A DNA stretch of 19,354 nt from a virus (taxonomy: Duplodnaviria > Heunggongvirae > Uroviricota > Caudoviricetes): positions 1 to 19,354 of IMG/VR virus record IMGVR_UViG_2537561977_000019; one strand, written 5' to 3'. The notes under the pieces were generated by a model. It had not been told where the DNA came from. It was given only the letters and a program-made list of their open reading frames with translations, and did no database searches. Made by a program: the position numbers and the translations under genes. Each line of letters begins with the position of its first letter. Position 1 is the stretch's first letter. Shown here piece by piece: positions 1,050 through 19,354 of the stretch.

Positions 1050-1051
1050 GC

Positions 1052-1128: not shown

Positions 1129-1129
1129 T

Positions 1130-1205: not shown

Positions 1206-1245
1206 GATAACATAATGATAACGTTACAGAATAAATTCAGCAATA

Positions 1246-2304
1246 TCACTCTCTCTTTCTGATTGAATTCTGTACATCTCTTGCGGTCTGCTCAAAACGT
1301 TCAGCCTCCAGCTCGACACCAATTGCACGACGCCCCAGCGCCATCGCTGCTTTGACTGTCGAACCGGACCCCATGAAGAAATCTGCAACCAGGTCACCCG
1401 GACGACTGCTGGCGGTAATCATTTGCCGCAACATATCTGCCGGTTTTTCACAGGGATGTTTGCCCGGATAATACTGCACAGGCTTGTGCGTCCAGACATC
1501 CGTATAAGGAACGGCTGCCGATACGGAAAAATAACGCCGCAGGGATTTGTACTCTTCCAGCAGGCTGGCATACTGCCGGTTCAGCTCACTGTATGTGCTG
1601 ACCAGTTGGTGATGTGGCTTTTCCAGTTCACCCCGCTGATGTTTCTCTTCTGCCACCCGGGCAAACAGCACCTGAAGTTTTCTGTAATCATCCTCATTCG
1701 GCAACTGCCACTGACTGGCACCAAACCAGTGGGAAACCATATTTTTCTTACCTGTGGCTTCGGCAATTTGTTTTGCCGTTATACCCAGTTCGGCACGAGC
1801 ATCCCTGAAATACGATATCAGCGGTGCCATTATGTGCTGTTTGAGTTCCCTTTCTTTTGCCGCATAGCCGTCACTTTTGCCGCGATATGGCCCCTGGTAA
1901 TGTTCAGCAAACAGAACGCGCTCTGTGGCAGGAAAATATGCGCGCAGACTTTCTTTATTACACCCATTCCAACGTCCGGACGGCTTCGCCCAGATGATAT
2001 GGTTAAGCACGTTGAAACGTTCACGCATCATGATCTCAATATCAGATGCCAGGCGATGCCCACAGAACAGGTAAAGGCTTCCGGCAGGTTTCAACACCCG
2101 CCAGAACTGGGCCAGACAGTGGTCCAGCCACTTAAGGTAATCTTCGTCCCCTTTCCACTGATTGTCCCAACCGTTAGGTTTCACCTTGAAGTAAGGCGGA
2201 TCGGTAACAATCAGGTCAATGGAATCATCAGGCAGGGACTGAATAAAATGCAGGCAATCAGCGTTGATTAAATCAACACTGTTTATTTTTACAGTATTTT
2301 TCAT
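1246..2304 (-). CDS. DNA methyltransferase, beta-class (N6-adenine or N4-cytosine), 352 aa
   Basis: Catalytic motif DPPY near the N-terminus (LIVTDPPYF) and the SAM-binding motif FxGxG near the C-terminus (DFFMGSGSTVKAA). ATG at 2304; no strong SD. Confidence 0.8.
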   Translation of the reverse strand: MKNTVKINSVDLINADCLHFIQSLPDDSIDLIVTDPPYFKVKPNGWDNQWKGDEDYLKWLDHCLAQFWRVLKPAGSLYLFCGHRLASDIEIMMRERFNVLNHIIWAKPSGRWNGCNKESLRAYFPATERVLFAEHYQGPYRGKSDGYAAKERELKQHIMAPLISYFRDARAELGITAKQIAEATGKKNMVSHWFGASQWQLPNEDDYRKLQVLFARVAEEKHQRGELEKPHHQLVSTYSELNRQYASLLEEYKSLRRYFSVSAAVPYTDVWTHKPVQYYPGKHPCEKPADMLRQMITASSRPGDLVADFFMGSGSTVKAAMALGRRAIGVELEAERFEQTARDVQNSIRKRE

Positions 2305-2682: not shown

Positions 2683-2778
2683 GACATACCAATAACTCTT
2701 GTCTAAAAATCCAGCAAGATAAAAAGTCAGTATTCACGACCACCAGCGTGTTTACTGTACTGCACCAAGTTTACAGGT

Positions 2779-2803
2779 ACAAAAACCCGCTCAGTGGCGG
2801 GTT
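2779..2803 (-). terminator. tR'-like intrinsic terminator downstream of Q
   Basis: Stem CCCGC (2786-2790) / GCGGG (2797-2801) with loop TCAGTG; on the minus strand it is followed by TTTTTGT (complement of 2779-2785). Confidence 0.5.
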
Positions 2804-2849
2804 CTTAAATCTTATCAACGGTAGACATACAAAGCCCATCGTTGGGAAA

Positions 2850-2878
2850 ATCTTATCCATATTTTTTGAAAAATGCAA
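2850..2878 (-). promoter_or_regulatory. Candidate late promoter (pR'-like) just downstream of Q
   Basis: Minus strand reads TTGCAT (complement of 2873-2878), a 17-nt spacer, then TAAGAT (complement of 2850-2855). It sits about 50 nt upstream of the tR'-like hairpin. Confidence 0.35.
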
Positions 2879-2909
2879 GCATCATGTCGCCATCTTCGGC
2901 AAAAATCAT

Positions 2910-3662: not shown

Positions 3663-3675
3663 GCTCGTTCTCCAC

Positions 3676-4671: not shown

Positions 4672-4672
4672 C

Positions 4673-5482: not shown

Positions 5483-5501
5483 ACTTCGTTTCTCCTCTTG
5501 A

Positions 5502-5891
5502 TCAGGCGGCTGCACCCGCCGTTTTCTCGTACTTACTGATAGTGATCTCGACCTTCCCTTTCGGGATAACCGGTCCCCACTCCACCAGCATTCTTTTCAC
5601 CTGACTGTCGTCTTCCCACACACCCGCGTGGGTCAGGGCGTCAAACAGCGCCTTGTTATAGTTGTCCAGATCGCGGATCCGGTTATCCGGAGGAAACAAC
5701 ACGATCTCCACTGAAGCAGGTGCCGACGTTGGTTTCGGCAGACGACGTAACTGCTCAACTATTGCTGCGCACGCCGCGCTCTGGAATTTTCGCCCCGCCG
5801 AGCTTATCAGGCTCTTACCAGCAAACGCCCCTTTGTTGGAGTGTCGCCAGTACGTGTTCACGCTGGGCGGAAAAGGCAGGATCAGCTTCAT
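5502..5891 (-). CDS. rusA: RusA-family Holliday junction resolvase
   Basis: 129 aa with RusA hallmarks (LPFPPSVNTYWRH ... RDLDNYNKALFDALT ... DDSQV). ATGA overlap with the upstream gene. Confidence 0.85.
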   Translation of the reverse strand: MKLILPFPPSVNTYWRHSNKGAFAGKSLISSAGRKFQSAACAAIVEQLRRLPKPTSAPASVEIVLFPPDNRIRDLDNYNKALFDALTHAGVWEDDSQVKRMLVEWGPVIPKGKVEITISKYEKTAGAAA

Positions 5892-6214
5892 ACTTTCAGG
5901 TCCCTCTCATGTAACCAGTGGGTTGCACGCAGCCTTGCGTTTTCCTCACCGGCAAGCAGTGCGCGGATAATCCCGACCGCCTCGCTGTCGTCGTCCTTCA
6001 CCGCGGTATGAAGCGTTATCCCCCGGGCCACGCCACGCTTTATCGTGATGACGCCTTTTTTCTCCAGTGCGCGAAGATGCTCCACCGCTGCATTCACTGA
6101 ACGGTATCCCAGCATGGTTGCCACCTCCTGATTGGTTGGCGGGAAGCCACGTTCTTTCTGATAAGAAATCAGCATATCCAGCACCTGCTGCTGGCATTGA
6201 GTTAACGTCGTCAT
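5888..6214 (-). CDS. LexA-like winged-helix DNA-binding domain protein with no peptidase domain
   Basis: The first ~70 aa align with the LexA N-terminal domain (LTQCQQQVLDML ... PPTNQEVATMLGYRSVNAAVEHLRALEKKGVITI ... ARGITL). The 108-aa protein lacks the S24 Ser/Lys protease domain. ATGA overlap with the Dam gene. Confidence 0.7.
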   Translation of the reverse strand: MTTLTQCQQQVLDMLISYQKERGFPPTNQEVATMLGYRSVNAAVEHLRALEKKGVITIKRGVARGITLHTAVKDDDSEAVGIIRALLAGEENARLRATHWLHERDLKV

Positions 6215-6864
6215 GCCGCCATCTCCCTGACCAGTTTTTCCGCCTGCTGGCGAACCTGCGCCAGAAACGCCTCACCACATGCCTCAAGTTCATCGCGCCC
6301 GATGTAGCTGATTGCCGGTCCCTTCCAGGTCTTATCGAAAACAGCAATAGCACCAGCGAAGAAAGCGCCTGTCGGCACCTGCTTCTCATCCTTCGGGATA
6401 AACCAGGCAGGCAGTTCAAAACCAATACGCCCGCGAATAAAAGCAATATGGTCCGCATCTTCCGGCCACCACACTTCGCTGGTGGCAGCTTTGATCAGGA
6501 AAACATAGCGCCCACCCTTATCACGCATGGCACTGGCATGTTTCATGATGTAACGCATGCCGGTGATGTATTGCCCCTCATGCTGACTGGCGCGGCTGTA
6601 TGGGGGATTACCAAAGGCAGCCCCTTTAAGCTCCGCAAGACGTTCTGACCAGTCATGCGCCAGCGCGTTGTCTTCCGCCGTGTAATACGCAGCACATTTG
6701 GCGTTATCACCGTCAGTGAACAGATCCAGAACAAACGGGCCAAACAGGGTGTTAATTCCCCAGAAAATGTTGTCCGGCGTGCGCCACTGATCACCCACTT
6801 CCTTCAGTTCATGGGCTGGTTTGTTCCTCAGTTCCACCAGCTCCTGGCAATATTTATTACTCAT
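6211..6864 (-). CDS. Phage Dam-family N6-adenine DNA methyltransferase
   Basis: NPPY motif (AAFGNPPYS) in a ~217-aa protein. ATG at 6864 overlaps the upstream stop (TAATG); an alternative GTG lies at 6897. Confidence 0.8.
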   Translation of the reverse strand: MSNKYCQELVELRNKPAHELKEVGDQWRTPDNIFWGINTLFGPFVLDLFTDGDNAKCAAYYTAEDNALAHDWSERLAELKGAAFGNPPYSRASQHEGQYITGMRYIMKHASAMRDKGGRYVFLIKAATSEVWWPEDADHIAFIRGRIGFELPAWFIPKDEKQVPTGAFFAGAIAVFDKTWKGPAISYIGRDELEACGEAFLAQVRQQAEKLVREMAA

Positions 6865-7352
6865 TAAGCCCCCACGTAATTCCCTGACAGATACCACTCA
6901 TCACCCGATACAGCGCGCTTGCTGCTTTTCCGTAAACACTGCTCACGACGCGCCAGAAAATTGTTTCGTTCTGGCTGGGAGTGGCTTTCACGGAATGCCG
7001 CCATCCACACCGTTGCAGCACGACGGTATAAGCCCCTGGACTCCAGTTCTTCCGCCTGGCGGGTCAGGCACAAAATCACCCGGGGATCGTTAGTGCCGAC
7101 ATAGAAATTGCGCACAGGTCTGGTTTCACGAACTGGTTGTGGTTCCGGCTCCTGCGCTCTCTCAGTCAGGCGTGGGAAATGTCTGCGTGTATCTCCTTCA
7201 CAACGGTGAGCCACACGCCCACTCTGACGTAACTTGCTTGCTGACTGCAGAACGCGCTGCCGTGAGTAACCTGCAAAAGCATCCGCAATGTCTCCGGAAG
7301 TACACCCCGGATGGGCTTCAATGAATTTCTGAACGTCATTCAAAAGACTCAT
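6864..7352 (-). CDS. Hypothetical phage protein (about 162 aa)
   Basis: ORF starts 3 nt after the O-like stop (ATG 7352, AGGGG SD) and is coupled to the downstream Dam gene. Arg-rich; no confident family. Confidence 0.5.
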   Translation of the reverse strand: MSLLNDVQKFIEAHPGCTSGDIADAFAGYSRQRVLQSASKLRQSGRVAHRCEGDTRRHFPRLTERAQEPEPQPVRETRPVRNFYVGTNDPRVILCLTRQAEELESRGLYRRAATVWMAAFRESHSQPERNNFLARREQCLRKSSKRAVSGDEWYLSGNYVGA

Positions 7353-7354
7353 GA

Positions 7355-8173
7355 TCACCCCCTGAATCCTGCCGGGATCTGGCTGTAGTCCACGTTGTCG
7401 TAACTGGCTTTGAAGTACGGGTCCTCGCGTCTGGCTGCAGATACCGCAGGAACTTCCCAGGATTCTTCGAAATGACGATCCGGACCAAAGAACGTGACAG
7501 CCTGTTTCACAAATTGTGTGCCGCTGTTACCCATCGCAGATACCCAGCCCGCGTAGCGTTTCACACCTTCCAGCATGGTTTCGGGGTTTACCCCCTCATT
7601 CAAACGGGCTTTCCAGGCTTTGAAGGCTGCAGATTTTGAATTGCCACCAGCACGTTTGGGATAGGCCAGCCATGCCTGCTCAAACTCCGGAGAGTATTCC
7701 GGTCGGTTTGAACTAACTCGCACAGACTCATCAGCAGATGCACCAACAGCTATTGGTTCATTGACTGGTTCTTTGACTGGTTCAAAAGAGTGACTGGTTC
7801 TGGGTGAATCTCCTGCACTACCCCCTAGTGCAACTCCTGCACTACCTGGTGAATTTGCTGCACCAGATAGTGAATTATTTGCACTACCCCCTAGTGAATC
7901 TCCTGCACCATCCAGATGAAGGAGATAGATATTACTTGAGTTACCTTTTTCACCTTTCCGGGTGACTTTTTTTACCAGCCCGGACTCACAAAGGGCCGCA
8001 ATATGATTCATCACAGAACGTTTGCTAATCTCGCACTGGTCAGCAATATGCTGGTAGCTGGGCCAGCACTCACCCTGATCGCTGGCATTATCAGCCAGCT
8101 TGATCAGAACCAGTTTTCGCAATGGATTACCCACTCGAATTTTCATCGCTTTAACCATCAGCTCCATACTCAT
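7355..8173 (-). CDS. Replication initiator, O-like (N-terminal winged-helix, Gly/Ser/Ala-rich linker)
   Basis: N-terminus LRKLVLIKLADNASDQGECWPSYQHIADQCEISKRSVMNHIAALCESGLVKK resembles phage replication-initiator HTH domains. The linker is encoded by repetitive DNA, as iterons are in lambda O. ATG at 8173 in an ATGA overlap. Confidence 0.65.
   Translation of the reverse strand: MSMELMVKAMKIRVGNPLRKLVLIKLADNASDQGECWPSYQHIADQCEISKRSVMNHIAALCESGLVKKVTRKGEKGNSSNIYLLHLDGAGDSLGGSANNSLSGAANSPGSAGVALGGSAGDSPRTSHSFEPVKEPVNEPIAVGASADESVRVSSNRPEYSPEFEQAWLAYPKRAGGNSKSAAFKAWKARLNEGVNPETMLEGVKRYAGWVSAMGNSGTQFVKQAVTFFGPDRHFEESWEVPAVSAARREDPYFKASYDNVDYSQIPAGFRG
7761..7910. repeat. Iteron-like direct repeat cluster inside the O-like gene (candidate origin)
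   Basis: TGACTGGTTC occurs three times (7762-7771, 7774-7783, 7791-7800); GTGAATCTCCTGCAC twice (7804-7818, 7894-7908); TGCACTACCCCCTAGTG twice (7814-7830, 7880-7896); CTCCTGCACTACC also at 7835-7847. Confidence 0.5.
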
Positions 8174-8394
8174 GCTGCACCTCCGAGATGCTTCATGTTT
8201 TTTCCGGAGCGAAAGGCTATAAGCGGCATACTGACGCGGTAATTACGGCCCAGCGGTTCACAAATCACCTTCTGACATTCACGGTCAACCAGGCTAACAC
8301 GTAGAACATGCCCTGCAGGCGTGGTGTACCACTGACCCGGACGAGGACAACGGAAAGTCTGATTGGTAAAACGTTTGAAAATATTCCGGATCAT
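8170..8394 (-). CDS. Small hypothetical protein (74 aa), possibly DUF4222-like
   Basis: ATGA overlaps at both ends (8391-8394 and 8170-8173) place it in the coupled early-right operon. The family guess is from a weak motif memory only. Confidence 0.45.
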   Translation of the reverse strand: MIRNIFKRFTNQTFRCPRPGQWYTTPAGHVLRVSLVDRECQKVICEPLGRNYRVSMPLIAFRSGKNMKHLGGAA

Positions 8395-9554
8395 TTACGC
8401 CCCCTTACCTCTGAAGGGTTCAGCGACAAATTTATGAGACTGGCCAGTAGCGCCGCGTCGTTGATGCGGTCATACAGACTTACAGCCAGCGGGGATTCGG
8501 CTTTTGCCAACATGGGATAAAGCTGCTGCAGCCAGACCTGATGAATTGATGAAATGTAGGAATAGAGAACGCTGGCGTTATGTGCAACGTCGCTCAGTAC
8601 AGAGGGATTTGAAAGCTGTTTCTCCATCTGGTTAAAGGCATTGATGTATGCCTCTTTGAACCGGGCAGCACGTTTACCCGTGAAACCCATAGCAAGAAAC
8701 GCAAAGCCGTCGCGGGTTATTTGATAGCAAGGAAGTTTGCGAGTACCGCCGTTGGGCTGGCGTACCAAAATTGATGTCTCCGCAAAATTGCGGGCACAAA
8801 ACTCTGGAGAACAATCCAAAATGCGGATCTTTTTCAGAACATCGTCATGACGTTTAGAGAAGAAGTCAGCAACAGCCAAAGAAGATGTAACAGCCTGACC
8901 ATCAACGATGGCAATTTCAGGTTGAGAGAGGGTTGGGAGAGTAGTCATGGTGACAGCCCCGGTAGTCAGTTTTTTAGAAAACTCACCACATGGGACGCCA
9001 ATCACAGAGGTGGTGAGACGTACAGGGTTGGCGTTACCGGAGACTACCGAACCCGGCCCGACCGAAGTCGGCCCTGTACGCCCCACCATAATTTGGGCGT
9101 AGCAATGCTCATGACACGAAAAAACCGCATGAGCGCGGTTATGCTCAGTAATCAATTTCAGGACGCCAATCCCGGCACCCGTTTTATAAGGTGCCTGAAC
9201 AGTGTAACGTCCCGGAATGGCAGAATCAATGTGCTGGTGGTCCTTCACACTCAACAAAATCACGCCTGAATTTCCACAAAGGACTAAAGCACTCATGCGG
9301 GTAGTCTTTGCGAAGATAGATAACGCGCTGTGTTTCTGGCTCCCAACGAATAACATGAACATAAAGTCCTCTTCCGTCACGAAACCAGCGGTTAAGTTCC
9401 TGCACAACTCGCCCCCCACAGTCAGGTAAAGTTCTCTGTGGTTACTTACAGCCAGGTGATTTGGTAATCTGCATTCATGCCGTAACAACAGGTGTGCAGC
9501 GACACTGACCACCAGCTGTTGCGACAAACGGTTATTTGCCGTTAAACTGTTCAT
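8391..9554 (-). CDS. Rha-family regulatory-domain protein with a ~200-aa N-terminal extension of unknown function
   Basis: Residues ~205-330 match the Rha pattern (AVADFFSKRHDDVLKKIRIL ... RDGFAFLAMGFTGKRAARFKEAYINAFNQME). ATG at 9554 overlaps the upstream stop (ATGA) with a GGAG SD; the frame stays open for 387 codons. An internal ATG at 8948 would give an Rha-only protein. Confidence 0.6.
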   Translation of the reverse strand: MNSLTANNRLSQQLVVSVAAHLLLRHECRLPNHLAVSNHRELYLTVGGELCRNLTAGFVTEEDFMFMLFVGSQKHSALSIFAKTTRMSALVLCGNSGVILLSVKDHQHIDSAIPGRYTVQAPYKTGAGIGVLKLITEHNRAHAVFSCHEHCYAQIMVGRTGPTSVGPGSVVSGNANPVRLTTSVIGVPCGEFSKKLTTGAVTMTTLPTLSQPEIAIVDGQAVTSSLAVADFFSKRHDDVLKKIRILDCSPEFCARNFAETSILVRQPNGGTRKLPCYQITRDGFAFLAMGFTGKRAARFKEAYINAFNQMEKQLSNPSVLSDVAHNASVLYSYISSIHQVWLQQLYPMLAKAESPLAVSLYDRINDAALLASLINLSLNPSEVRGRK

Positions 9555-10135
9555 GCGTTAGTTTCTCCACAACCAGAAGCAATCGACGCCACGACGCCCG
9601 GAGCTGCACACTCGCGGGCGTTACTCTTTTCCGGCGCACAAAAAACACGAAATAACAGTGTTAAATGCTCCTGCCACTTCGCCATTACTTGGTAGCTGTT
9701 CTCTTCGATTTGCTCACGCTCAGCTTGGTCAATAACTCCATCAGCAGTTGCCTTGCGTAAGTACTGGGAATGCTTGCCAATCCATTCTATTGACTCCATC
9801 AGCCGCTGATTAATGTCACCATTGTCAATGTCATCAATGACCACCAGCGGCACAAACACCCCATTACTACGACGGGCTATTGCATCTGTTACATGCCTGG
9901 TACCACTGGCATCCTGTAAAACCATGGCCCACTCAAGTGGAAAAATTTGATCCCCACCGCTACGCAGTCTGTTATGCAATTGATCTTTTGCTGGGGTGAT
10001 ATCATCAGATTTATACAAACCAAGAATTTCTGCTGCTTCCTCATAGCCATGAGGTAAATCAGCAATCGTTCTTCGTATTGCTGCCACCAGCCATGCTGGT
10101 TGTTTATCAACTTTCCATTCAGGTTCTTTACCCAC
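9551..10135 (-). CDS. Regulator in the cII position (possibly YdaT-like), about 195 aa
   Basis: GTG at 10135 has a GAGGA SD 7 nt upstream and lies 28 nt after the cro stop. The ORF track's upstream ATGs (10246, 10213) have no SD and would overlap cro. Function is inferred from position only. Confidence 0.45.
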   Translation of the reverse strand: MGKEPEWKVDKQPAWLVAAIRRTIADLPHGYEEAAEILGLYKSDDITPAKDQLHNRLRSGGDQIFPLEWAMVLQDASGTRHVTDAIARRSNGVFVPLVVIDDIDNGDINQRLMESIEWIGKHSQYLRKATADGVIDQAEREQIEENSYQVMAKWQEHLTLLFRVFCAPEKSNARECAAPGVVASIASGCGETNA

Positions 10136-10163
10136 GGTTAATTCCTCATTTCTGTGGTTACGT

Positions 10164-10427
10164 TTACGCAGCTGAACCGCTAACTTTTGAATAGCACTCA
10201 GGTAATCCATCATTTGGATTGGGGTAAATATCAGGACGCAGTTCATGAGGGGTCACGGACCAGTTTCCCAACTCACAAAGTTGTAAAACCCGTTCTGACG
10301 GGACTTGATTGTTAATTACCCAATTAGCGACGGATTGAGTGGACTTAAAACCAAAGCGACGGGCTACTTCAGATAAAGATTTTCCCGCAGCTTTTACTGC
10401 TTTCTCTGTGTAGTTTTGAGATGACAT
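10164..10427 (-). CDS. Cro-like HTH regulator (YdaS-like)
   Basis: 87 aa with an HTH segment (LSEVARRFGFKSTQSVANWV), divergent from the CI-like gene; GAGGAG SD before the ATG at 10427. Confidence 0.75.
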   Translation of the reverse strand: MSSQNYTEKAVKAAGKSLSEVARRFGFKSTQSVANWVINNQVPSERVLQLCELGNWSVTPHELRPDIYPNPNDGLPECYSKVSGSAA

Positions 10428-10533
10428 ACCTTTCTCCTCTGAAATTCAGAGGGATAATGCTACTTAAAATAGCAAAATGCAACTACTTAAAATAGAAATG
10501 ACTAGCGTATGTGATGTGAGTAATCTTCTACCT
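10428..10533. promoter_or_regulatory. Immunity-region operator/promoter interval (OR with divergent pR and pRM)
   Basis: 106-bp interval between divergent cro-like and cI-like starts. Contains two exact 13-bp direct repeats CTACTTAAAATAG (10460-10472, 10483-10495). Minus strand carries TTGCAT-17-CATTAT as a pR-like element. Confidence 0.5.
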
Positions 10534-11238
10534 ATGGTAGAAGAACAGAAGTATCCAGATTTCGCCAAGAGACTAAACGAGCTAATGACAAACAAGGGAA
10601 TTTCTGTCACCCAACTCAAAAGTCTTGTGGGCGTTACATATGAAATGGCGCGGCGATACACAATCGGCGCTGCGAAGCCTCGTGCCTCTGTCATGAATAA
10701 ACTTGCATTGGCTCTGGGGGTATCAGCTTCATATTTAGAATATGGTGTTGGCGAGAGAGAAGGATGTAAGGAAATGACAAGCATCCCCAATCCAACAAAA
10801 CCCGATGTATACAGGATAGAAGTTTTGGATCTTAGCGTTAGCGCAGGACCTGGGACCTATATGCTTTCAGACTATGTTGATGTGCTCTACGCCATTGAGT
10901 TCACAACAGAACATGCCCGTTCTCTTTTCGGCAACCGTTCTCAGGATGATATTAAGGTTATGACTGTAAATGGCGATAGTATGTCCCCTACTCTCGTTTC
11001 CGGAGACCGACTGTTTGTCGACATTTCTGTTCGTCACTTCCAGACTGATGGAGTTTACTCTTTCGTTTACGGTAAGACTTTTCATGTCAAACGTCTTCAA
11101 ATGCAAGGTGACAAGCTAGCCGTTCTTTCGGATAACCCCGCCTATGAGAAATGGTATATCGATGAAAAATCGCAGGATCAGCTTTATGTAATGGGCAAGG
11201 CGTTGATTCACGAATCTATAAAATACAACCGATTGTAA
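10534..11238 (+). CDS. CI-like prophage repressor (HTH plus S24 LexA-like peptidase domain)
   Basis: N-terminal HTH (FAKRLNELMTNKGISVTQLKSLVG) and C-terminal S24 motifs (VNGDSMSPTL ... GDRLFVD ... KRL). Start is uncertain: in-frame ATGs at 10477, 10498 and 10534, none with an SD, consistent with a leaderless pRM transcript. Confidence 0.8.
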   Translation: MVEEQKYPDFAKRLNELMTNKGISVTQLKSLVGVTYEMARRYTIGAAKPRASVMNKLALALGVSASYLEYGVGEREGCKEMTSIPNPTKPDVYRIEVLDLSVSAGPGTYMLSDYVDVLYAIEFTTEHARSLFGNRSQDDIKVMTVNGDSMSPTLVSGDRLFVDISVRHFQTDGVYSFVYGKTFHVKRLQMQGDKLAVLSDNPAYEKWYIDEKSQDQLYVMGKALIHESIKYNRL

Positions 11239-11282
11239 AACTCAATCCTTTCAGGATTAAAAGATCTAAAAGGATAATAATA

Positions 11283-11690
11283 ATGAAATCTGAACTATTT
11301 CATAACGAAGCAAATTCAGAAATTATCACCGCAGATGAGTTTATTGATTTCATAAACTCTTTCAAAAAGCCTTTAATTTGCCAAATTTGCGGAAATCAAT
11401 CATGGAGTGTAGTCGGTACTCTAGAACTTGAAGTTGAAGACAATCAGCCAAAACATCACGTAATCGAAGTTCTCAGCTATGCCCAATACAAACCTGAAAC
11501 TGATAGCGCTATAAATTATCCTGGTGGTATGCCGCTGTTTCGAATCACCTGTGATCACTGTGCACATGTACTTCTTTTTTCTTATAAAAAAGCTAGATCA
11601 TTGATCCAAAAAAGAAAAATGAAAAAGAAGAGGATGGGAAATGACGCGACCTTATCTCAGAGCAGTACCAAACTGTGGATCTGGTATTGA
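11283..11690 (+). CDS. Hypothetical Zn-ribbon protein (135 aa) in an AT-rich cassette co-oriented with cI
   Basis: ATG at 11283 with an AAGGA SD, 45 nt after the cI stop. Two CxxC pairs (CQICGN and CDHC) and a basic C-terminus. AT-rich composition by eye. Confidence 0.55.
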   Translation: MKSELFHNEANSEIITADEFIDFINSFKKPLICQICGNQSWSVVGTLELEVEDNQPKHHVIEVLSYAQYKPETDSAINYPGGMPLFRITCDHCAHVLLFSYKKARSLIQKRKMKKKRMGNDATLSQSSTKLWIWY

Positions 11691-12273
11691 TAAGTGTGAC
11701 CTTTACCCCAATGTTAAGAACAGGCTGCGCGTCGGTATAGAAGAAATGTATACTGATTTTATCGAATCCGCAGATGAAACTTACAAAACTGATGGGGGAA
11801 ATAAAATGTCATCAGTTAGTCGAGAAGAAATTCAAGCACTTTTAGCTGCCAATAAAGCAGAAATGGAGTCCATTGCATCCTCTATTAGAGTTGAAATGGC
11901 TTTATCTCGCGAGAACACAAACGTTCAGCTAGCATCTCTAAATTCAGCCATCAATTCTATCTCTTCGAAAATCGAAGGCAAAATGGACAGTGTTGACGGG
12001 GATGTGAAGGCCATCAATGGTAGATTCGAAGGTATACAAGGCCAAATTACTGGAATAAATACAGCCATTAGTGGTATTCAATCTGGAATTTCTACCAGAC
12101 TTGCTATTTTTGGAGTTATCATTGCGGTCATAGTTGCATTACCTAGCATAATTTCTGCTTTTAAAGATACTTCGCCAGTAGTTCAACCAGTTACACAACA
12201 ACCAAGTGTTAAACATCTCAACCAAGAACCAATTACTCCACAAGTATTACCTCCGCAGGGAAAAGCAAACTAA
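11641..12273 (+). CDS. Hypothetical coiled-coil protein with a single C-terminal transmembrane helix
   Basis: Two candidate starts, each with a good SD: 11641 (GAGGA, overlaps the previous ORF by 50 nt) and 11806 (GGGGGA). Heptad-like Ser/Ile/Gly repeats, then LAIFGVIIAVIVALPSIISAF and a Pro/Gln-rich tail. Confidence 0.55.
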   Translation: MTRPYLRAVPNCGSGIDKCDLYPNVKNRLRVGIEEMYTDFIESADETYKTDGGNKMSSVSREEIQALLAANKAEMESIASSIRVEMALSRENTNVQLASLNSAINSISSKIEGKMDSVDGDVKAINGRFEGIQGQITGINTAISGIQSGISTRLAIFGVIIAVIVALPSIISAFKDTSPVVQPVTQQPSVKHLNQEPITPQVLPPQGKAN

Positions 12274-12297
12274 ACCGGCTTTATGCCGGTTTTTTTC
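12274..12297 (+). terminator. Intrinsic terminator ending the cI-linked cassette
   Basis: Stem ACCGGC (12274-12279) / GCCGGT (12285-12290), loop TTTAT, followed by TTTTTTC. Confidence 0.75.
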
Positions 12298-12399
12298 TAT
12301 ACAAACGCCCCCTCTTTGTCTTGAATCACATCACAACACATTTAAAAAACATTTTAAATTCAAAGCATTAAACGCATCAACGCATATCAAACAAATTAT

Positions 12400-12448
12400 C
12401 TACTTTTAGTTGTTGATTTTTGCTACTTTTGGTAGCAGAATTATTTTA
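12400..12448 (+). promoter_or_regulatory. Candidate pL/OL: plus-strand promoter overlapping operator-like sites
   Basis: TTGCTA (12420-12425), 16-nt spacer, TATTTT (12442-12447). Overlaps CTACTTTTGGTAG (12423-12435) and sits next to CTACTTTTAG (12400-12409), both sharing the CTACTT...TAG ends of the OR repeats. Confidence 0.4.
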
Positions 12449-12520
12449 ACGACAACGAACAGGCAGGACGCCCACGAAGTAGCCGCCTGGGGCATATGAA
12501 GTCCAGGATGATTCGTTAGC

Positions 12521-12547
12521 AACAAAAAAGCGCCCTACAGGACGCTT
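12521..12547 (-). terminator. Intrinsic terminator for the convergent minus-strand gene
   Basis: Stem AAGCG / CGCTT with a 10-nt loop, followed on the minus strand by TTTTTTGT. Confidence 0.45.
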
Positions 12548-12585
12548 AGCTCTTTAACAATCTGGATATCCACAACAGTAGTAAT

Positions 12586-13077
12586 CTACAGATTGCCGTT
12601 AAGTTTTCTGGACAACTCCTCAATGGATGGAGGCGATACGTAATCCGGATTTTTATTCATCAGAAACTTATTTTCACAGTGGAGGCACCTGCTTTTATGA
12701 AAAAGCTCATCTTCGCTAACCGGGAATGGTTGAAGTATCGATACTATCTTTTGTCCAAAACATTTTGGGCAAAGATGCATGGTTATGCTGCCACCGTTCA
12801 CGATTACCTCCTTCGAGTATACAAAAGTACCCGACTCAAGTTGGTTAAGGATATAGCCTTCCGTCTGAGCCTCAAAGTTTTCGAATTCTGCAATTTTAGC
12901 TTTGAGAGAAGCATTTATTTCTTGATAAGAGCCCACCAGTTCAACGAGAGACACGCATTCGCGCTGAATAGACGCAAGCTTTGAGTTCAGCTCACCAATA
13001 GCCGCATTTACTTCAGCTTGAGTTTTTGCCTCGTTCATTAGTTTTGCAATCTGGGCTGTTTCACGAATAGCCGTCAT
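12586..13077 (-). CDS. Hypothetical coiled-coil protein with a C-terminal Zn-ribbon (about 163 aa)
   Basis: AT-rich ORF convergent on the cI cassette. Likely start ATG 13077 or GTG 13101 (AAGAG SD); the longer ORF-track N-terminus is Arg/Pro-rich and judged non-coding. C-terminus HLCPKCFGQ ... CLHCENKF. Confidence 0.5.
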   Translation of the reverse strand: MTAIRETAQIAKLMNEAKTQAEVNAAIGELNSKLASIQRECVSLVELVGSYQEINASLKAKIAEFENFEAQTEGYILNQLESGTFVYSKEVIVNGGSITMHLCPKCFGQKIVSILQPFPVSEDELFHKSRCLHCENKFLMNKNPDYVSPPSIEELSRKLNGNL

Positions 13078-13115
13078 TGCTGCCGTTAATTCAGCGATCA
13101 CATTGAATACTCTTA

Positions 13116-13169
13116 TTGTTGTTGGGGATATCCAGATTAACCGAATCCTTGTTGTTGGGGAATAACCAG
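13116..13169. repeat. Tandem direct repeat TTGTTGTTGGGGA-TA-CCAG (two copies)
   Basis: 13116-13135 TTGTTGTTGGGGATATCCAG and 13149-13169 TTGTTGTTGGGGAATAACCAG, just upstream of the minus-strand gene start. Confidence 0.4.
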
Positions 13170-13388
13170 GTCCACCTCGCCTGATGTGGCTAAAAGCAGG
13201 CACATAACAGCTAAGTATTTTCAACCAGAGAGAATCCTTAGCGTTGTGGTGAATGCGGCTCAGCGCACGCGGGTTAAGGTTGAGGCTGACAGTCGACCTT
13301 CTGTGGATACCCACCCGTCTGGTGTGCAACCTTCGCCAGGCACCGGGAGGCACCCGGCACCACAACTTTATGCTGTGTGTAGTCCTGG

Positions 13389-13433
13389 CGGTACCAGTTT
13401 GTACCCTTGCTTCCGGCTGGTACCGTCCTTTTT
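13389..13433 (+). terminator. Terminator-like hairpin with T-tract in the early-left leader
   Basis: 9-bp arms CGGTACCAG (13389-13397) / CTGGTACCG (13417-13425), then TCCTTTTT. About 140 nt upstream of the first early-left gene. Confidence 0.4.
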
Positions 13434-13570
13434 ACAAAACAGAGAAGAGCATCACCGGACGACGGGCTCATAACCCAATCCATCCGGGCGGCTGCCACCG
13501 CAGGTGTTCTTCTCTGTTTTGTGGAGAAACCAACCGGCCTTGCAGGGTCGATATGATGAGGAGCAGCAAA

Positions 13571-13933
13571 ATGGCTAGCGAACGCAGTACTGATGTGCAG
13601 GCATTTATCGGGGAGTTGGACGGCGGCGTATTTGAAACCAAAATCGGCGCAGTTCTCAGTGAAGTCGCTTCAGGTGTGATGAACACGAAAACCAAAGGTA
13701 AGGTCTCACTCAACCTGGAAATCGAACCATTTGATGAGAACCGTGTGAAAATCAAACACAAACTCTCATATGTTCGCCCGACTAACCGCGGGAAAATTTC
13801 CGAAGAAGACACCACCGAAACGCCGATGTATGTCAATCGCGGTGGTCGCCTGACTATTCTGCAGGAAGACCAGGGACAATTACTGACTCTTGCCGGTGAA
13901 CCTGACGGAAAACTCCGCGCAGCAGGTCATTAA
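13571..13933 (+). CDS. Hypothetical early-left protein, YfdP-like (about 120 aa)
   Basis: ATG 13571 with a GAGGAG SD; the longer ORF-track N-terminus is GC-rich leader. Family name is a tentative match based on size and gene order. Confidence 0.5.
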   Translation: MASERSTDVQAFIGELDGGVFETKIGAVLSEVASGVMNTKTKGKVSLNLEIEPFDENRVKIKHKLSYVRPTNRGKISEEDTTETPMYVNRGGRLTILQEDQGQLLTLAGEPDGKLRAAGH

Positions 13934-13998
13934 TATCGTTCTTAATTAACCGATTATTTATCTCATCACTGAATATCTTTATATAGTGAGGACTTATT

Positions 13999-14823
13999 AT
14001 GTCTCAGAACTTAGACGCAACCGCAATTAATCAAATCCATGCCCTTATTTCTGCTCAGGGTGTTAATGAAATTATCAGTAAGATTGGTGCCGATGCTGTG
14101 GCATTACCTGAAAATTTCCGCATTCATGATCTGGAAAAATTTAATTTAAATCGCTTCCGTTTCCGTGGTGCGCTTTCCACTGCCAGCATCGATGACTTTA
14201 CCCGTTATTCTAAAGATCTTGCAGATGAAGGCACCCGCTGCTTTATCGATGCCGATAATATGCGTGCCGTCAGTGTGCTTAACCTGGGTACTATTGATGA
14301 ACCAGGTCACGCAGATAACACTGCCACTCTCAAACTGAAAAAGACAGCACCGTTCTCTGCTCTGTTGTCTGTTAACGGCGAGCGTAACTCCCAGAAGTCA
14401 CTGGCAGAATGGATTGAAGACTGGGCCGACTACCTTGTGGGCTTTGATGCTAATGGTGACGCCATTCAGGCAACCAAAGCGGCTGCGGCGATCCGTAAAA
14501 TCACAATTGAAGCGAACCAGACCGCTGATTTTGAAGATAATGACTTCAGCGGCAAACGCTCCCTGATGGAGTCTGTCGAAGCGAAGACCAAAGACATTAT
14601 GCCTGTGGCATTTGAATTTAAATGCGTTCCGTTTGAAGGTCTGAAAGAACGTCCGTTTAAATTACGCCTCAGCATTATCACTGGCGATCGTCCTGTACTG
14701 GTTCTGCGCATTATTCAGCTGGAAGCGATGCAGGAAGAAATGGCTAACGAATTTCGTGATCTGCTTGTTGAGAAATTCAAAGACAGCAAAGTAGAAACCT
14801 TTATTGGTACTTTCACCGCCTGA
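13999..14823 (+). CDS. YfdQ-like (DUF2303) protein, 274 aa
   Basis: ATG 13999 with a GAGGA SD. Size and neighbours (HD-domain gene next) resemble the yfdPQRS prophage block; family recalled, not computed. Confidence 0.6.
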
Positions 14824-14951
14824 TTTCATTACTGCAAATGCCCCTGCGGGGGCATTTATGGAAACGTAATTAACTCAATAATCACCGGATGGTGAGAGCT
14901 TCCTTTTAGCAGAATTCAGCGCGGTGCAGCGCATATAAAGTGGAGAACGAA

Positions 14952-15488
14952 ATGTCATTTATTAAAACTTTTTCCGGGAAGCATTTTTATTATGACAAGA
15001 TAAATAAAGACGACATCGTGATTAACGATATCGCAGTTTCCCTTTCAAATATCTGTCGCTTTGCAGGACATCTTTCACACTTCTACAGTGTCGCCCAGCA
15101 TGCGGTGCTTTGCAGCCAGCTGGTGCCGCAGGAATTTGCTTTTGAAGCGTTAATGCATGATGCAACAGAAGCATATTGCCAAGACATCCCCGCGCCACTG
15201 AAACGACTTCTTCCTGACTATAAACGGATGGAAGAAAAAATAGACGCCGTAATCCGTGAGAAATACGGGTTACCTCCTGTTATGAGCACGCCAGTGAAAT
15301 ATGCCGATCTCATTATGCTGGCAACCGAACGCCGTGATCTCGGGCTTGATGATGGCTCTTTCTGGCCTGTTCTGGAAGGTATCCCGGCAACAGAGATGTT
15401 CAAAGTTATTCCACTGTCGCCAGGCCATGCCTATGGGATGTTTATGGAGCGTTTTAACGAGTTATCGGAGTTACGCAAATGCGCATGA
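14952..15488 (+). CDS. HD-domain phosphohydrolase (YfdR-like 5'-deoxynucleotidase)
   Basis: HD-domain metal ligands (FAGHLSHFYSVAQHAVL ... LMHDATEAY). ATG 14952 with a GGAG SD gives 178 aa. Confidence 0.7.
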   Translation: MSFIKTFSGKHFYYDKINKDDIVINDIAVSLSNICRFAGHLSHFYSVAQHAVLCSQLVPQEFAFEALMHDATEAYCQDIPAPLKRLLPDYKRMEEKIDAVIREKYGLPPVMSTPVKYADLIMLATERRDLGLDDGSFWPVLEGIPATEMFKVIPLSPGHAYGMFMERFNELSELRKCA

Positions 15489-15829
15489 ATGTTTTCGAAA
15501 TGGAAGGGTTTCTTCGCGGGAAATGTGTACCGCGAGATCTGAAAGTGAATGAAACAAATGCTGAGTATCTGGTGCGTAAATTCGATGAAGTACGTGCTGA
15601 GGCTCGCAACGAGGGTATTAACTATACCGCAAGCCGTCTTGCTGCTGCTTTCAATCACGGATTTATCAATAAGCCTTTGGCTGAAGTTTTCGACGTTACA
15701 CGCATGATTCTGTCAGCAAAAGAAGAGTTAGCTAATGAATCGCATCCGATTGATGGCCTGTCCGGTGAATATGCAGAGAAATCCCTTGAAGAATGGGCGG
15801 AACGGCTTCGCAAAGGAGGCAGCCAGTGA
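15485..15829 (+). CDS. Hypothetical protein, YfdS-like (about 114 aa)
   Basis: ATG 15485 overlaps the upstream stop (ATGA); an alternative ATG lies at 15479. No motif recognised. Confidence 0.5.
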   Translation: MNVFEMEGFLRGKCVPRDLKVNETNAEYLVRKFDEVRAEARNEGINYTASRLAAAFNHGFINKPLAEVFDVTRMILSAKEELANESHPIDGLSGEYAEKSLEEWAERLRKGGSQ

Positions 15830-16299
15830 CTGGACATGCAGCAATCCTCGACATGTGCTGTGGCAGTCGCATGTTCTGGTTCGATAAGAATGACGACCGG
15901 GCGATATTTAGCGATATCAGAAAGGAAGAGCACACATTGTGTGATGGACGACGCCTGATTATCAGTCCTGATCTGATAGCTGATTTTCGTGCACTACCAT
16001 TTGCAGACGCATCTTTTTCGATGGTTATATTCGACCCTCCGCATCTTGAGCGTGTTGGTGATAACGCCTGGATGGGAAAGAAATATGGACGGCTGAATAA
16101 AGATACCTGGCGTGATGATTTGCGGCAGGGATTTAAAGAAGCCTTTCGTGTGTTGCGTCCATCCGGCGTTCTGATTTTTAAATGGAATGAAACGCAAATA
16201 CCTGTTCGCCAGATATTGGTACTGACCGACAGAAAACCTGTTATCGGTCAACGAACAGGAAAAAACGATAAAACCCACTGGATTATTTTTATAAAATAG
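15826..16299 (+). CDS. Small SAM-dependent methyltransferase-like protein (157 aa)
   Basis: Motif I-like (AILDMCCGS) followed by a DPPH motif (VIFDPPHLE). GTG 15826 sits 6 nt after an AAGGAGG SD and overlaps the upstream stop (GTGA). Confidence 0.6.
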   Translation: MTGHAAILDMCCGSRMFWFDKNDDRAIFSDIRKEEHTLCDGRRLIISPDLIADFRALPFADASFSMVIFDPPHLERVGDNAWMGKKYGRLNKDTWRDDLRQGFKEAFRVLRPSGVLIFKWNETQIPVRQILVLTDRKPVIGQRTGKNDKTHWIIFIK

Positions 16300-16445
16300 G
16301 CATCCAGTGAGTAGGTTCGTAAGGTTACAGATACGTATATCTGAATAATTAAATTCAGTTCTGTAAATAAAATTTAATCCTTAACCGGAGGGATTCCTGC
16401 ACCCTCAGAACATCAGGAGACCGCCCGAAAGGGCGGTAATGAAAA

Positions 16446-16862
16446 ATGGCTGAATTAACCAAATGGCTACAAAACACGATTACCGGAATTGAAACGGTAG
16501 TAGACGATAAATCGTTTGTATGTGATGAAATAGTATTCAAAATCGATGTGGTTAAAAACGTACTTACCGCATTTAAAGTCGCGCTGGCATCGCTGGAAGC
16601 AGAGCCGATAGGTTTCCGTTGCAGGCGCAATGATAACCTTGGTGACTGGAGTTACGTATATCATCGAGAGCCAGATGATTTTGAGCGCAAACATTTAGTG
16701 ATAGAGGGCATTTACGCCGCCCCTCCAGTGCTAGTAGTACCGGAAGAAAAACCAATGCCTAATCCTCTTAGCATGTACGCGGTCGATGCTGTTGCCGCTA
16801 TTGCAGAGGTGAGAGGCTGGAACGCCTGCCGTGCCGCTATGCTTCAGGGGAAAGGAGAGTGA
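16446..16862 (+). CDS. Hypothetical protein (138 aa)
   Basis: ATG 16446, preceded by a GNRA-loop hairpin and a distant AGGAGA; followed by a coupled downstream gene. Confidence 0.5.
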   Translation: MAELTKWLQNTITGIETVVDDKSFVCDEIVFKIDVVKNVLTAFKVALASLEAEPIGFRCRRNDNLGDWSYVYHREPDDFERKHLVIEGIYAAPPVLVVPEEKPMPNPLSMYAVDAVAAIAEVRGWNACRAAMLQGKGE

Positions 16863-16863
16863 T

Positions 16864-17445
16864 ATGACCACTATAACCGATAAGAAACAGTATCCCAGCG
16901 ATCAATATCTTAATGAGCTGATCACCAACATGGAGTTTGCTGCAAGGGCACCAGTTGAAGTCGTGAGAGCGATGGCAGCAGAGCTACAGAAGCGGCGCGA
17001 AGCTGATAGTGCAGAACCTGTAAGCCAAACTTACAACTTGCCAGAATTAATCGAAGGCATGGAAGTTTCCATTGATGTAAGCACTTGTGATGCTGATTTA
17101 GGTAATCGCTATTTCGGCACCGTAACCGAGGCGTTAGAACTTGATACTGCCAAGAATGGTTACATCCTCCTGGTTCAGGACGCAGAGCCAAACTTCGATG
17201 TAAATGGCAACTCTCCGGTAACTCCGGATGGTTGGATAAGCTGTAGTGATCGAATGCCTGAAAAGGGCCAGAACGTGCTTATTTCGGTGAATTTCGATAG
17301 CTCTCTGGTTGAACCGCTAATATGCTCCGCACGCTATACCGGAAGCACCTTTCGGCGCGGAGATGCAACGATTAAGCCGGGTAATGGTATTGAGCAAGCA
17401 ACTCACTGGATGCTGCTACCGGAACCGCCGCAGGAGGTGAAGTGA
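16864..17445 (+). CDS. DUF551-like phage protein
   Basis: ATG 16864 with an AGGAGAG SD; C-terminal DGWISCSDRMPEKGQNVLI resembles the DUF551 signature. Confidence 0.6.
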   Translation: MTTITDKKQYPSDQYLNELITNMEFAARAPVEVVRAMAAELQKRREADSAEPVSQTYNLPELIEGMEVSIDVSTCDADLGNRYFGTVTEALELDTAKNGYILLVQDAEPNFDVNGNSPVTPDGWISCSDRMPEKGQNVLISVNFDSSLVEPLICSARYTGSTFRRGDATIKPGNGIEQATHWMLLPEPPQEVK

Positions 17446-18017
17446 TGAACAACTTAATGATCGACCTTGAGACGATGGGGAAAAATAAGGATGCACCGAT
17501 CGTTTCCATTGGCGCGGTGTTCTTCACTCCAGAAACCGGAGACATCGGACAAGAATTCTATACGGTTGTCAGCCTGGACAGTGCTATGGAGCAAGGGGCC
17601 ACACCTGACGGCGATACCATCCTGTGGTGGTTGAAACAAAGCCCTGAAGCACGAGCTGCAATCTGTATTGATGATACTTTGTCGATCAGCGATGCACTCT
17701 CTGAACTGAGCCATTTCATTAATCGGCACGCAGACAATACGAAATATTTAAAAGTTTGGGGTAACGGGGCCACCTTCGACAACGTAATTTTACGCGGAGC
17801 TTATGAACGAGCGGGACAAATCTGCCCGTGGGCGTACTGGAATGACCACGATGTACGCACGATCGTTACGCTTGGGCGTTCCATCGGATTCGACCCAAAA
17901 ATGGACATGCCTTTCGATGGCGAACGGCACAACGCCCTGGCTGATGCCCGTCATCAGGCAAAATATGTTTCCGCTATCTGGCAGAAACTAATTCCTGCCA
18001 CCAGCACAGAATTATGA
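17445..18017 (+). CDS. DEDDh-type 3'-5' exonuclease
   Basis: Exo I motif (MIDLETMG) and Exo III H-x4-D motif (HNALADA). ATG 17445 overlaps the upstream stop, with a GGAGG SD. Confidence 0.7.
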   Translation: MNNLMIDLETMGKNKDAPIVSIGAVFFTPETGDIGQEFYTVVSLDSAMEQGATPDGDTILWWLKQSPEARAAICIDDTLSISDALSELSHFINRHADNTKYLKVWGNGATFDNVILRGAYERAGQICPWAYWNDHDVRTIVTLGRSIGFDPKMDMPFDGERHNALADARHQAKYVSAIWQKLIPATSTEL

Positions 18018-18053
18018 TTTTCCCGGGTGCAGCCGGTTTTGATGGAGAAAATT

Positions 18054-18326
18054 ATGAACACCTTGTTTTTACTGATGGCTGAATTCAATACCCCTAACAT
18101 TGAACTCTCAGCAGTTAGCCAAAAGTACTTTGGCATGAGTCCAGCCACGGCAGAAGCAAAAGCAAACGCTTGTAAGTTGCCCGTTCCAACATATCGCATC
18201 GGCACATCACAAAAAGCAAAACGTTGCATCAATATTCAGGATCTTGCGGAATACATAGACAAAAGGCGAGAAGAAGGGCGTGCTGAGTGGGAAAGGGTCA
18301 GAACCCATAAACAAAGGCTCATTTAA
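18054..18326 (+). CDS. PrtN/excisionase-like small DNA-binding protein
   Basis: Pattern SQKYFGMSPATAEAKANACKLPVPTYRIGTSQKAKRCINIQDLAEYIDKRR; ATG 18054 with a GGAGAAA SD. Last gene of the plus-strand operon. Confidence 0.55.
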   Translation: MNTLFLLMAEFNTPNIELSAVSQKYFGMSPATAEAKANACKLPVPTYRIGTSQKAKRCINIQDLAEYIDKRREEGRAEWERVRTHKQRLI

Positions 18327-18335
18327 ATAGAATAT

Positions 18336-18365
18336 GAATAAACCCATCCAAAGATGGGTTTATTC
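18336..18365. terminator. Bidirectional terminator hairpin between convergent genes
   Basis: 13-bp perfect arms GAATAAACCCATC (18336-18348) / GATGGGTTTATTC (18353-18365) with loop CAAA, AT-rich on both flanks. Confidence 0.55.
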
Positions 18366-18821
18366 ATAATGTTGAAGAGCAGCGAGTATCAGTTTTTTAT
18401 GCCGTTTAACCATAGTTTTAGATATCTCAACTGCACATCGAACTTGTCTCATACAATGATCTGTAATGCGACCTTTTAGCACGTCACCATATTGGATGGC
18501 TATTTTCTCTTTAATAATTTCAAGATCGAAAGCAGCATGAGCCTCAATGCAATTAACAAATGAGTCCCATTTAAGAAAATCATGGTCCTCTCTATTAATT
18601 TCGACCTGACAAGCCATAAGATCATTGTTTCTCTTAATAAATTCATTTATATCTGAATTTATTAGAAGAACTAAAAGAGGTTCACAGCAAACAACCACCA
18701 TATATTTTACTTTAGGTGGGGTCGTAAAATCACAATGAAGATACAATACATCACCGGGTGATATACCTCTTTCACGACTAAAATTAGCCTTAAAATCAGG
18801 AGGGAAACAATCACCCAGCAT
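18360..18821 (-). CDS. Hypothetical protein (about 153 aa), coupled partner of the Panacea-like gene
   Basis: AT-rich ORF starting 5 nt after the upstream stop (ATG 18821; a TTG at 18830 overlaps the stop). Cys/His-containing; no family recognised. Confidence 0.5.
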   Translation of the reverse strand: MLGDCFPPDFKANFSRERGISPGDVLYLHCDFTTPPKVKYMVVVCCEPLLVLLINSDINEFIKRNNDLMACQVEINREDHDFLKWDSFVNCIEAHAAFDLEIIKEKIAIQYGDVLKGRITDHCMRQVRCAVEISKTMVKRHKKLILAALQHYE

Positions 18822-18826
18822 AAGTA

Positions 18827-19354
18827 TCAATATCCGTTCTTCAGATAATCCAGTATTAATTTGCTATTTTTTAGCTGTGCAACTATCGATTCCAAAGACA
18901 TCTCACCATTGTGATCTGCCTGTTCCCATGCCGCGTCATGGCTCATGGTTCTGATAGCTTCAAAGGACATGTTTCCAAGCATCGCGATAGACTTATCAAT
19001 ACACTCTAAATCTGAGTCACTAAAAAAGTCTTCATCAGCTTCACGGCTCGGCACAATCGTCATACCTGATACAGAAAATGCTTTTCGCACAGAATCGACA
19101 TCACAATCATTAGGAATGTAACGTCCATCTCCACGAGCAATTTTTATAATATCGTATGTGTTGCTTGCTACAGGCCCATCCTTCATAGCGTTATAGTGAT
19201 CGCCCGTTATGAGGCGTCCAAAACTTTCAAGGTGAAACCTGTCAGCATAATAAAGAATTTTTCCGACATGATAGATATCTGGGATCGGTGCTTTAGAGGC
19301 GACGTACAGAATGGCCTCTAAAGCCTTTTCTGAATCAAACCTTACATTTAGCAT
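18827..19354 (-). CDS. Panacea-domain (DUF4065)-like protein; start codon sits at the window edge
   Basis: KILYYADRFHLESFGRLITGDHYNAMKDGPVASNTYDIIK and the later SHDAAWEQA fit the DUF4065 pattern. The ATG is at 19352-19354 and its upstream region is outside the window. Confidence 0.55.
   Translation of the reverse strand: MLNVRFDSEKALEAILYVASKAPIPDIYHVGKILYYADRFHLESFGRLITGDHYNAMKDGPVASNTYDIIKIARGDGRYIPNDCDVDSVRKAFSVSGMTIVPSREADEDFFSDSDLECIDKSIAMLGNMSFEAIRTMSHDAAWEQADHNGEMSLESIVAQLKNSKLILDYLKNGY

Follow-up and report, generated by a model that had tools for sequence, protein, structure and literature searches.

The stretch examined here is IMG/VR virus record IMGVR_UViG_2537561977_000019, positions 1 to 19,354, which in its full length of 19,354 nucleotides is called the window, and which is an Escherichia coli lambdoid prophage of the CPS-53/KpLE1 type. 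Its early-left operon holds a gene for a methyltransferase-like protein of 157 amino acids (aa), referred to below as the small methyltransferase. A sequence-only reading of the window had described a methyltransferase-like gene with motif I followed by DPPH at this place, and the open reading frame (ORF), the motifs and the homologues all agree with that description. The features of the gene and of its protein, a putative user of S-adenosylmethionine (SAM), are the following.

15826..16299, plus strand: coding sequence of a minimal class I SAM-dependent methyltransferase, 157 aa, GTG start, TAG stop at 16297-16299
15813..15819, plus strand: Shine-Dalgarno sequence AAGGAGG, 6 nt 5' of the GTG, read from the sequence
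15479..15829, plus strand: upstream neighbour, 116-aa ORF of phrog_614, its stop overlapping the start of the small methyltransferase; not a conserved partner
15844..15867, plus strand: motif I ILDMCCGS, SAM-binding loop, aa 7-14; D9, C12 and G13 at least 90% conserved in 99 relatives
15913..15915, plus strand: D30 at the end of strand beta2, invariant; putative motif II acid for the SAM ribose
15922..15963, plus strand: beta-hairpin aa 33-46 between beta2 and beta3, the most variable segment; candidate substrate-specificity element
15982..15987, plus strand: D53-F54, putative motif III and contact of the SAM adenine; D53 at least 90% and F54 70-90% conserved
16033..16044, plus strand: motif IV DPPH, aa 70-73, invariant in the 99 relatives; putative catalytic loop for an exocyclic amino group

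Reading frame, conservation and predicted fold

The GTG at 15826 shares its letters with the TGA stop of the ORF at 15479-15829 (GTGA), and this overlap suggests that translation of the small methyltransferase may be coupled to that of its upstream neighbour. An alternative, longer frame starts with the ATG at 15793 and would give a protein of 168 aa. However, conservation across the family starts at about residue 6, which favours the 157-aa form over the longer one, and it is the 157-aa form that RefSeq annotates on a 99.5%-identical stretch. A chance ORF is excluded, as homologues reach an E-value of 1.6e-99, the best among 7470 homologous clusters at 90% identity; at 50% identity, the clusters amount to 2076 representatives.

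The gene follows a cI-like S24 repressor gene (10477-11238, plus strand), which divides two divergent early regions. The operon on the plus strand consists of yfdP-like genes, YfdQ/DUF2303, the 5'-deoxynucleotidase YfdR (two genes upstream of the small methyltransferase), the 116-aa ORF and the small methyltransferase, and continues with a 138-aa ORF, DUF551, a 3'-5' exonuclease and a PrtN-type excisionase. As its placement after the repressor and the succession yfdP-yfdQ-yfdR are those of an early-left operon, I infer from position that the small methyltransferase would be a repressor-controlled early gene, silent in the lysogen.

Conservation was scored on 99 diverse representatives, which are 40-79% identical to the window protein. 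D30, P48, D70-P71-P72-H73 and R108 are invariant in these sequences, and conservation of at least 90% is seen at D9, C12, G13, R32, D49, D53, Y87, G88, W95, the 'GFxExFRVL' helix and 'FKW'. Variation peaks in aa 31-47, which is also the sole internal indel hotspot of the alignment. With this alignment as input, AlphaFold2 returned a model with a predicted local distance difference test score (pLDDT) of 95.7 and a predicted template modelling score of 0.90; it supersedes a single-sequence model that was unusable (pLDDT 37). The strands of the model are 7-9, 26-30, the hairpin 34-37/43-46, a short beta3, 64-69, 110-121, 140-144 and 150-156, and its helices are limited to 82-87, 95-109 and 127-131. 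Motif I is placed after strand 7-9 and the D-P-P of motif IV follows strand 64-69, with an invariant His as its fourth residue instead of the Tyr, Phe or Trp of the nine-motif scheme. The result is a class I methyltransferase sheet without helices A to C and without any extra domain. A target-recognition domain is absent from the model: the Rossmann core fills all 157 aa, and the 14-residue hairpin is the only variable element. The earlier statement that this unusually small protein has no room for a typical target-recognition domain therefore holds.

The protein is basic (isoelectric point 9.3), and the window copy is full length, ending on the family consensus; truncated copies of 118 aa occur in some prophages. 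A conserved additional domain at either terminus was considered and rejected, since extensions with DUF6291, ASCH and HTH_23 were found once each among the relatives. Forms of 225 aa and 166 aa stand together in one cluster, so some of the extensions are probably differing start-codon calls.

About a quarter of the closest enterobacterial homologues (P0009, P0020, P0075 and related proteins) are 248-251 aa long and share a C-terminal tail of about 90 residues (…RRLKHHINRMWL…AAMEEYA). This tail is lineage-specific, being missing from the window protein and from other phyla, and may have arisen by fusion to an early gene located downstream. Downstream of the stop of the small methyltransferase, the otherwise tightly packed operon has an AT-rich spacer of 146 nt (16300-16445, plus strand), in which a GC-rich hairpin without a T-run (ACCGCCC-GAAA-GGGCGGT, 16420-16437) lies just 5' of the ATG of the next ORF (16446). 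Loci L001, L004 and L006 have a gap of equal length behind the gene, and the spacer might mark the boundary of a module or act as an RNA element.

Relatives, labels and genomic company

The gene and its family are already catalogued and the observation as such is not new; an identical protein is present in NCBI as 'class I SAM-dependent methyltransferase'. The gene is carried by 945 of 5426 complete E. coli genomes (17%), in up to 5 copies. A tblastn search detected the family in 256 phage records, which span many phyla and have as hosts Streptococcus, Vibrio, Acinetobacter, Porphyromonas, Listeria, Gordonia, Lactobacillus, Enterococcus, Staphylococcus, Akkermansia, Bacteroides, Fusobacterium and others, and in all cases it lies in early or replication modules. 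On plasmids it was observed in 61 of 72,556 records, of which 46 are non-mobilizable, and for this reason a role as an anti-restriction gene of plasmid leading regions was rejected. The methylome papers on group A Streptococcus, O111 Shiga toxin-producing E. coli and Burkholderia do not address the family. Cds16 of Streptococcus phage SpSL1, a predicted adenine methylase without detectable activity (PMC6755750), was considered as a member that had been studied, and was rejected as belonging to a different family.

The full-length profile match is to phrog_954, 'DNA methyltransferase' (6.6e-86, aa 3-157), and in PADLOC the protein matches MTase_II PDLC03288 (1.7e-72, aa 6-157) and the orphan methyltransferase PDLC03730 (1.8e-49). 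The sequence-only reading had proposed a Pfam comparison as a check on the substrate class. It returned the generic Methyltransf_11 as the sole family above the gathering cut-off (24.2 bits against 21.2, over the 22 residues aa 97-118) and picked no substrate family, DNA or non-DNA; the Methyltransf_11 match neither assigns nor excludes a substrate. Methyltransf_11 and Methyltransf_25 are matched by 83 and 61 of the 99 relatives, respectively. In the same Pfam search, PF01555, PF05869 and similar curated DNA methyltransferase profiles did not match the window protein, PF01555 being matched weakly by 15 of the 99 relatives (best 3e-4), and an NCBIfam profile search gave nothing significant.

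The window contains two further methyltransferase genes, whose Pfam matches confirm the earlier count of three.

1246..2304, minus strand: beta-class N6/N4 DNA methyltransferase, 352 aa, in the late operon after Q; PF01555 6e-44, DPPY at aa 35, FMGSG at aa 310
6211..6864, minus strand: phage Dam-family N6-adenine methyltransferase in a nin-like region; PF05869 1e-45, NPPY

An hhalign comparison of the family profile with the beta-class enzyme of the window gave a local match over 56 columns (92% probability, E = 6e-7), which spans the catalytic half from 'F-D-x-x-F-x-x-V-V-F-DPPH' (motif IV) to the strand 'FRVLkPgG-L-I-F'. The small methyltransferase and the beta class (PF01555, M.EcoGII) thus have a homologous segment from the DPPx loop to the 'RVLkPgG-strand', both are borne by phages or prophages, and the flavour of motif I is similar (LDxCCGS against LDpFxGSG). 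The beta-class enzymes differ in having a central recognition domain, about 350 aa instead of 157 aa, and Tyr instead of His in motif IV. The motif order differs as well, as motif I precedes motif IV in the small methyltransferase, whereas in the beta class motif IV comes before motif I. The small methyltransferase looks like a PF01555-type core that has been permuted and has no recognition domain.

The phage Dam family (PF05869; the type of HP1, T1 and VT2 Dam) resembles it in other respects, being short orphan amino-methyltransferases of phage early or nin regions, with a profile length of 169 and likewise no large recognition domain of their own. PF05869 includes characterised GATC-methylating members. 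Profile similarity between the two families is undetectable (hhalign probability 0.1%), and motif IV is NPPY in the Dam family instead of DPPH. A member of the VT2 type, M.EcoVT2Dam, is named in PMC6602927. The RNA amino-methyltransferases that form N2-methylguanine (m2G) or N6-methyladenine (m6A), that is Trm11, TrmN/Trm14, RsmC, RsmD and TrmN6, have THUMP or N-terminal RNA-binding domains or Trm112, whereas neither the Pfam search nor the AlphaFold2 model showed a THUMP, PUA or other RNA-binding module in the small methyltransferase; in the PDB search no match to these enzymes was significant (best 0.23). The best sequence match in the PDB is PH0226 (1ve3; profile E = 6e-6), a protein itself without known function, to which Foldseek adds M.TaqI and PrmC. 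The fold alone therefore does not identify the substrate. PH0226 and the generic Methyltransf_11/25 enzymes differ from the small methyltransferase in that they have no DPPx motif IV and have kept helices A to C.

In 86 loci the gene is tightly packed in operons of small early genes, and its neighbours are not conserved (54 families upstream and 61 downstream). Nor is there a nuclease pairing in these loci, and a conserved partner such as a separate specificity subunit or a restriction enzyme was rejected. In a Pfam census of 62 distinct neighbour families (at least 70 aa, obviously spurious ORFs left out), C5 DNA methylase and DUF551 are the commonest with three of 62 each, followed by DUF977, excisionase and Ead/Ea22 with two each; among the singletons are dUTPase, dATP/dGTP pyrophosphohydrolase, DUF4406, a dCTP-deaminase-like gene, MmcB, ASCH, HNH and an Rv2179c-like exonuclease. 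In Gordonia phage Pickett and Akkermansia phage Chantilly the gene comes immediately after a large bona fide DNA methyltransferase, and in phage T12 and Staphylococcus phage QT1 it is part of the replication/recombination module. The genomic company of the small methyltransferase is DNA metabolism.

ASCH (PUA-like) domains recur around the family. The relative P0146 has one fused at its N-terminus, one upstream-neighbour family is Pfam ASCH in the census, and an upstream cluster from four loci (L046, L051, L052, L077) is ASCH-like by eye; in Gordonia phage Pickett an annotated ASCH gene stands three genes upstream of the family member (locus L085, gp54). ASCH and related domains have been linked to the recognition of modified bases.

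Proposed function and rival explanations

The reading towards which I lean, with some reserve, is that the small methyltransferase is an early-expressed, stand-alone and catalytically competent amino-methyltransferase, pared down to its Rossmann core, that acts on DNA and serves anti-restriction. The phrog_954 and PADLOC labels, the local profile match to beta-class enzymes and the genomic context point to it indirectly. Of the sequence-only reading, which had assumed DNA modification, the methyltransferase-like and unusually small third gene of the window stands, whereas DNA modification is not established with only the generic Methyltransf_11 above its cut-off.

In such an enzyme, motif I (aa 7-14) would hold SAM together with D30 at the ribose and D53-F54 at the adenine. 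A flipped-out base would be received by the DPPH loop (aa 70-73), where D70 and the proline backbone would bind the exocyclic amino group and H73 would stack on the base in place of the usual Tyr or Phe. The methyl group would then be transferred to adenine N6, or less likely to cytosine N4, in DNA. Adenine N6 is favoured because DPPH begins with Asp, and an Asp in the first position of motif IV is typical of N6-adenine enzymes. The substrate would be contacted by the variable beta-hairpin (aa 33-46) and by the conserved loop that follows motif IV (aa 74-94), and since these two elements would have to stand in for a missing recognition domain, a short or relaxed specificity is probable. Silent in the lysogen, the gene would be expressed soon after induction or infection, and the replicating phage DNA would be marked against host restriction.

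A number of points weigh against this proposal. The DNA labels in PHROGs and PADLOC are computational themselves, and neither Pfam nor NCBIfam has a specific curated model for the family. PDB sequence searches gave generic methyltransferases only and no close solved relative, and a few targeted full-text literature queries gave no experimental data on any family member. His in place of the aromatic residue of motif IV is atypical, and without a recognition domain the binding of duplex DNA and the flipping of a base would be hard to account for. The identity across phyla is high for a phage protein (64% with a Gordonia phage, 47-58% with Firmicutes phages), which would equally suit a universally conserved target other than DNA. 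Moreover, the prophage already has an orthologue of M.EcoGII and a Dam-family enzyme, so that a further adenine methyltransferase looks redundant.

Such a universally conserved target could be a host macromolecule, either an exocyclic amino group of rRNA or tRNA (m2G or m6A, as with RsmD, RsmC, Trm11 and TrmN6) or the amide of a protein glutamine (as with PrmC), modified for host takeover or for evasion of an RNA-targeting defence. A precedent is offered by single-domain enzymes such as RsmD, which handle pre-folded substrates and have no recognition domain; the strong conservation across phyla would fit, and one member of the family carries an ASCH domain, which is often RNA-linked. I nevertheless consider this target unlikely, as THUMP, PUA and other RNA-binding modules are absent, the catalytic half is akin at the sequence level to the PF01555 DNA methyltransferases, and the neighbours are DNA-metabolism genes and DNA methyltransferases instead of RNA-modification genes. 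An equally improbable, more unconventional version is that the core of about 150 residues is the minimal natural amino-methyltransferase and works without sequence recognition. It would then either methylate bases of DNA (or DNA/RNA) irrespective of context, with a gamma-like order of its motifs, or have a non-DNA target, for instance a nucleotide (free or signalling) or a host RNA that is conserved universally. In its non-DNA form it would explain the high conservation from actinobacterial to Bacteroidota hosts as well as the company of two ordinary DNA methyltransferases.

Less probable still is a small molecule, that is a free (deoxy)nucleotide or a nucleotide second messenger of a defence system, for which a bare core without recognition domain would suffice. 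The Pfam families that match, Methyltransf_11/25 (83 and 61 of 99), are generic and dominated by small-molecule enzymes, and nucleotide-metabolism genes are found nearby (YfdR, dUTPase, dATP/dGTP pyrophosphohydrolase, DUF4406 and the dCTP-deaminase-like gene). An evolutionary model derives amino-methyltransferases from nucleotide-methylating ancestors (PMC7544214), which would agree with such a substrate. However, the Pfam matches report the generic SAM-binding fold only, over 22 residues in the window protein, and the nucleotide-metabolism genes are ordinary in phage early regions, none of them being a conserved neighbour. Action on free nucleotides is not known for any enzyme that has a DPP(Y/F/H) motif, which also speaks against this substrate. 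Finally, the gene could be a degenerate remnant without methyl transfer, in the course of decay or encoding a non-catalytic protein that only binds SAM. The model has none of the canonical helices A to C, the aromatic residue of motif IV is replaced by His, and 118-aa copies exist. I regard this as very improbable, because D30, DPPH and R108 are invariant in the 99 representatives of a many-phylum family of about 2000 clusters, which argues for selection on catalysis, and the window copy is of full length with its end on the family consensus.

As a genome observation the gene is ordinary, being already annotated, common and part of normal lambdoid mosaicism. The family is very widespread, with about 2000 clusters from temperate phages when grouped at 50% identity and a share of 17% among complete E. 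coli genomes, and its members rank with the smallest methyltransferase-like proteins. A phage's survival of host restriction depends on its methyltransferases, and such enzymes are also useful tools, M.EcoGII being one example. If the target of the small methyltransferase were identified, it would become clear whether DNA can be modified by a Rossmann core that has no recognition domain, and the family would gain in interest if it turned out to methylate DNA regardless of context or to act on something other than DNA.

The prophage and its other methyltransferases

The product of the beta-class gene (1246-2304) is 85% identical (295/347) to M.EcoGII, the sequence of which was taken from the machine-read supplement of PMC11551740. 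M.EcoGII is a characterised non-specific adenine methyltransferase of E. coli prophages that is not expressed in lysogens, and an example of a phage amino-methyltransferase working without sequence specificity (PMC5778455). Based on this identity, the late operon of the prophage probably includes a gene for a context-free m6A methyltransferase, placed after the Q antiterminator (2910-3692), and the prophage probably already hypermethylates adenines late in infection. Four consecutive tRNA genes (896-1205, minus strand: Gly-TCC, Thr-TGT, Arg-TCT and Met-CAT) lie immediately downstream of the M.EcoGII-like gene. In L003, a prophage closely related to this one, the corresponding place behind the methyltransferase gene is taken by tRNA-Arg and tRNA-Ile.

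The sequence-only reading had taken three such enzymes within one window as a sign of strong selection, which goes too far. The small, the Dam-family and the beta-class gene belong to three transcription units (early-left operon, nin-like region and post-Q late operon, respectively), and their combinations vary in the two related prophages compared: L001 has the Dam-family and the small enzyme without a beta-class gene, while L003 has the beta-class and the Dam-family enzyme, with other genes in place of the small one. Given these separate operons and different combinations, they do not look like one coordinated three-enzyme system. The set looks like ordinary lambdoid mosaicism and is consistent with anti-restriction pressure on phages in general.

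The early-to-late region on the minus strand holds Cro, a CII-like gene, Rha, a replication gene, PerC, the Dam-family gene, a LexA-like gene, RusA, KilA-N, DUF968, Q, the beta-class methyltransferase and the four tRNA genes. On the plus strand, two genes directly follow the cI-like repressor (11283-12292; 135 aa, phrog_4293, and 210 aa, phrog_5820), and the pair ends with a strong terminator-like hairpin and T-run (12272-12292). They hold a rexAB-like position, which is often home to defence genes expressed in the lysogen. A gene with a SocA/Panacea antitoxin domain (18827-19354, minus strand; Pfam 2e-20) continues past the end of the window. The ORF of 156 aa downstream of it (18360-18830, minus strand), without a Pfam or PADLOC match, overlaps it by 4 nt, and the two are a candidate Panacea-type toxin-antitoxin pair at the end of the prophage.
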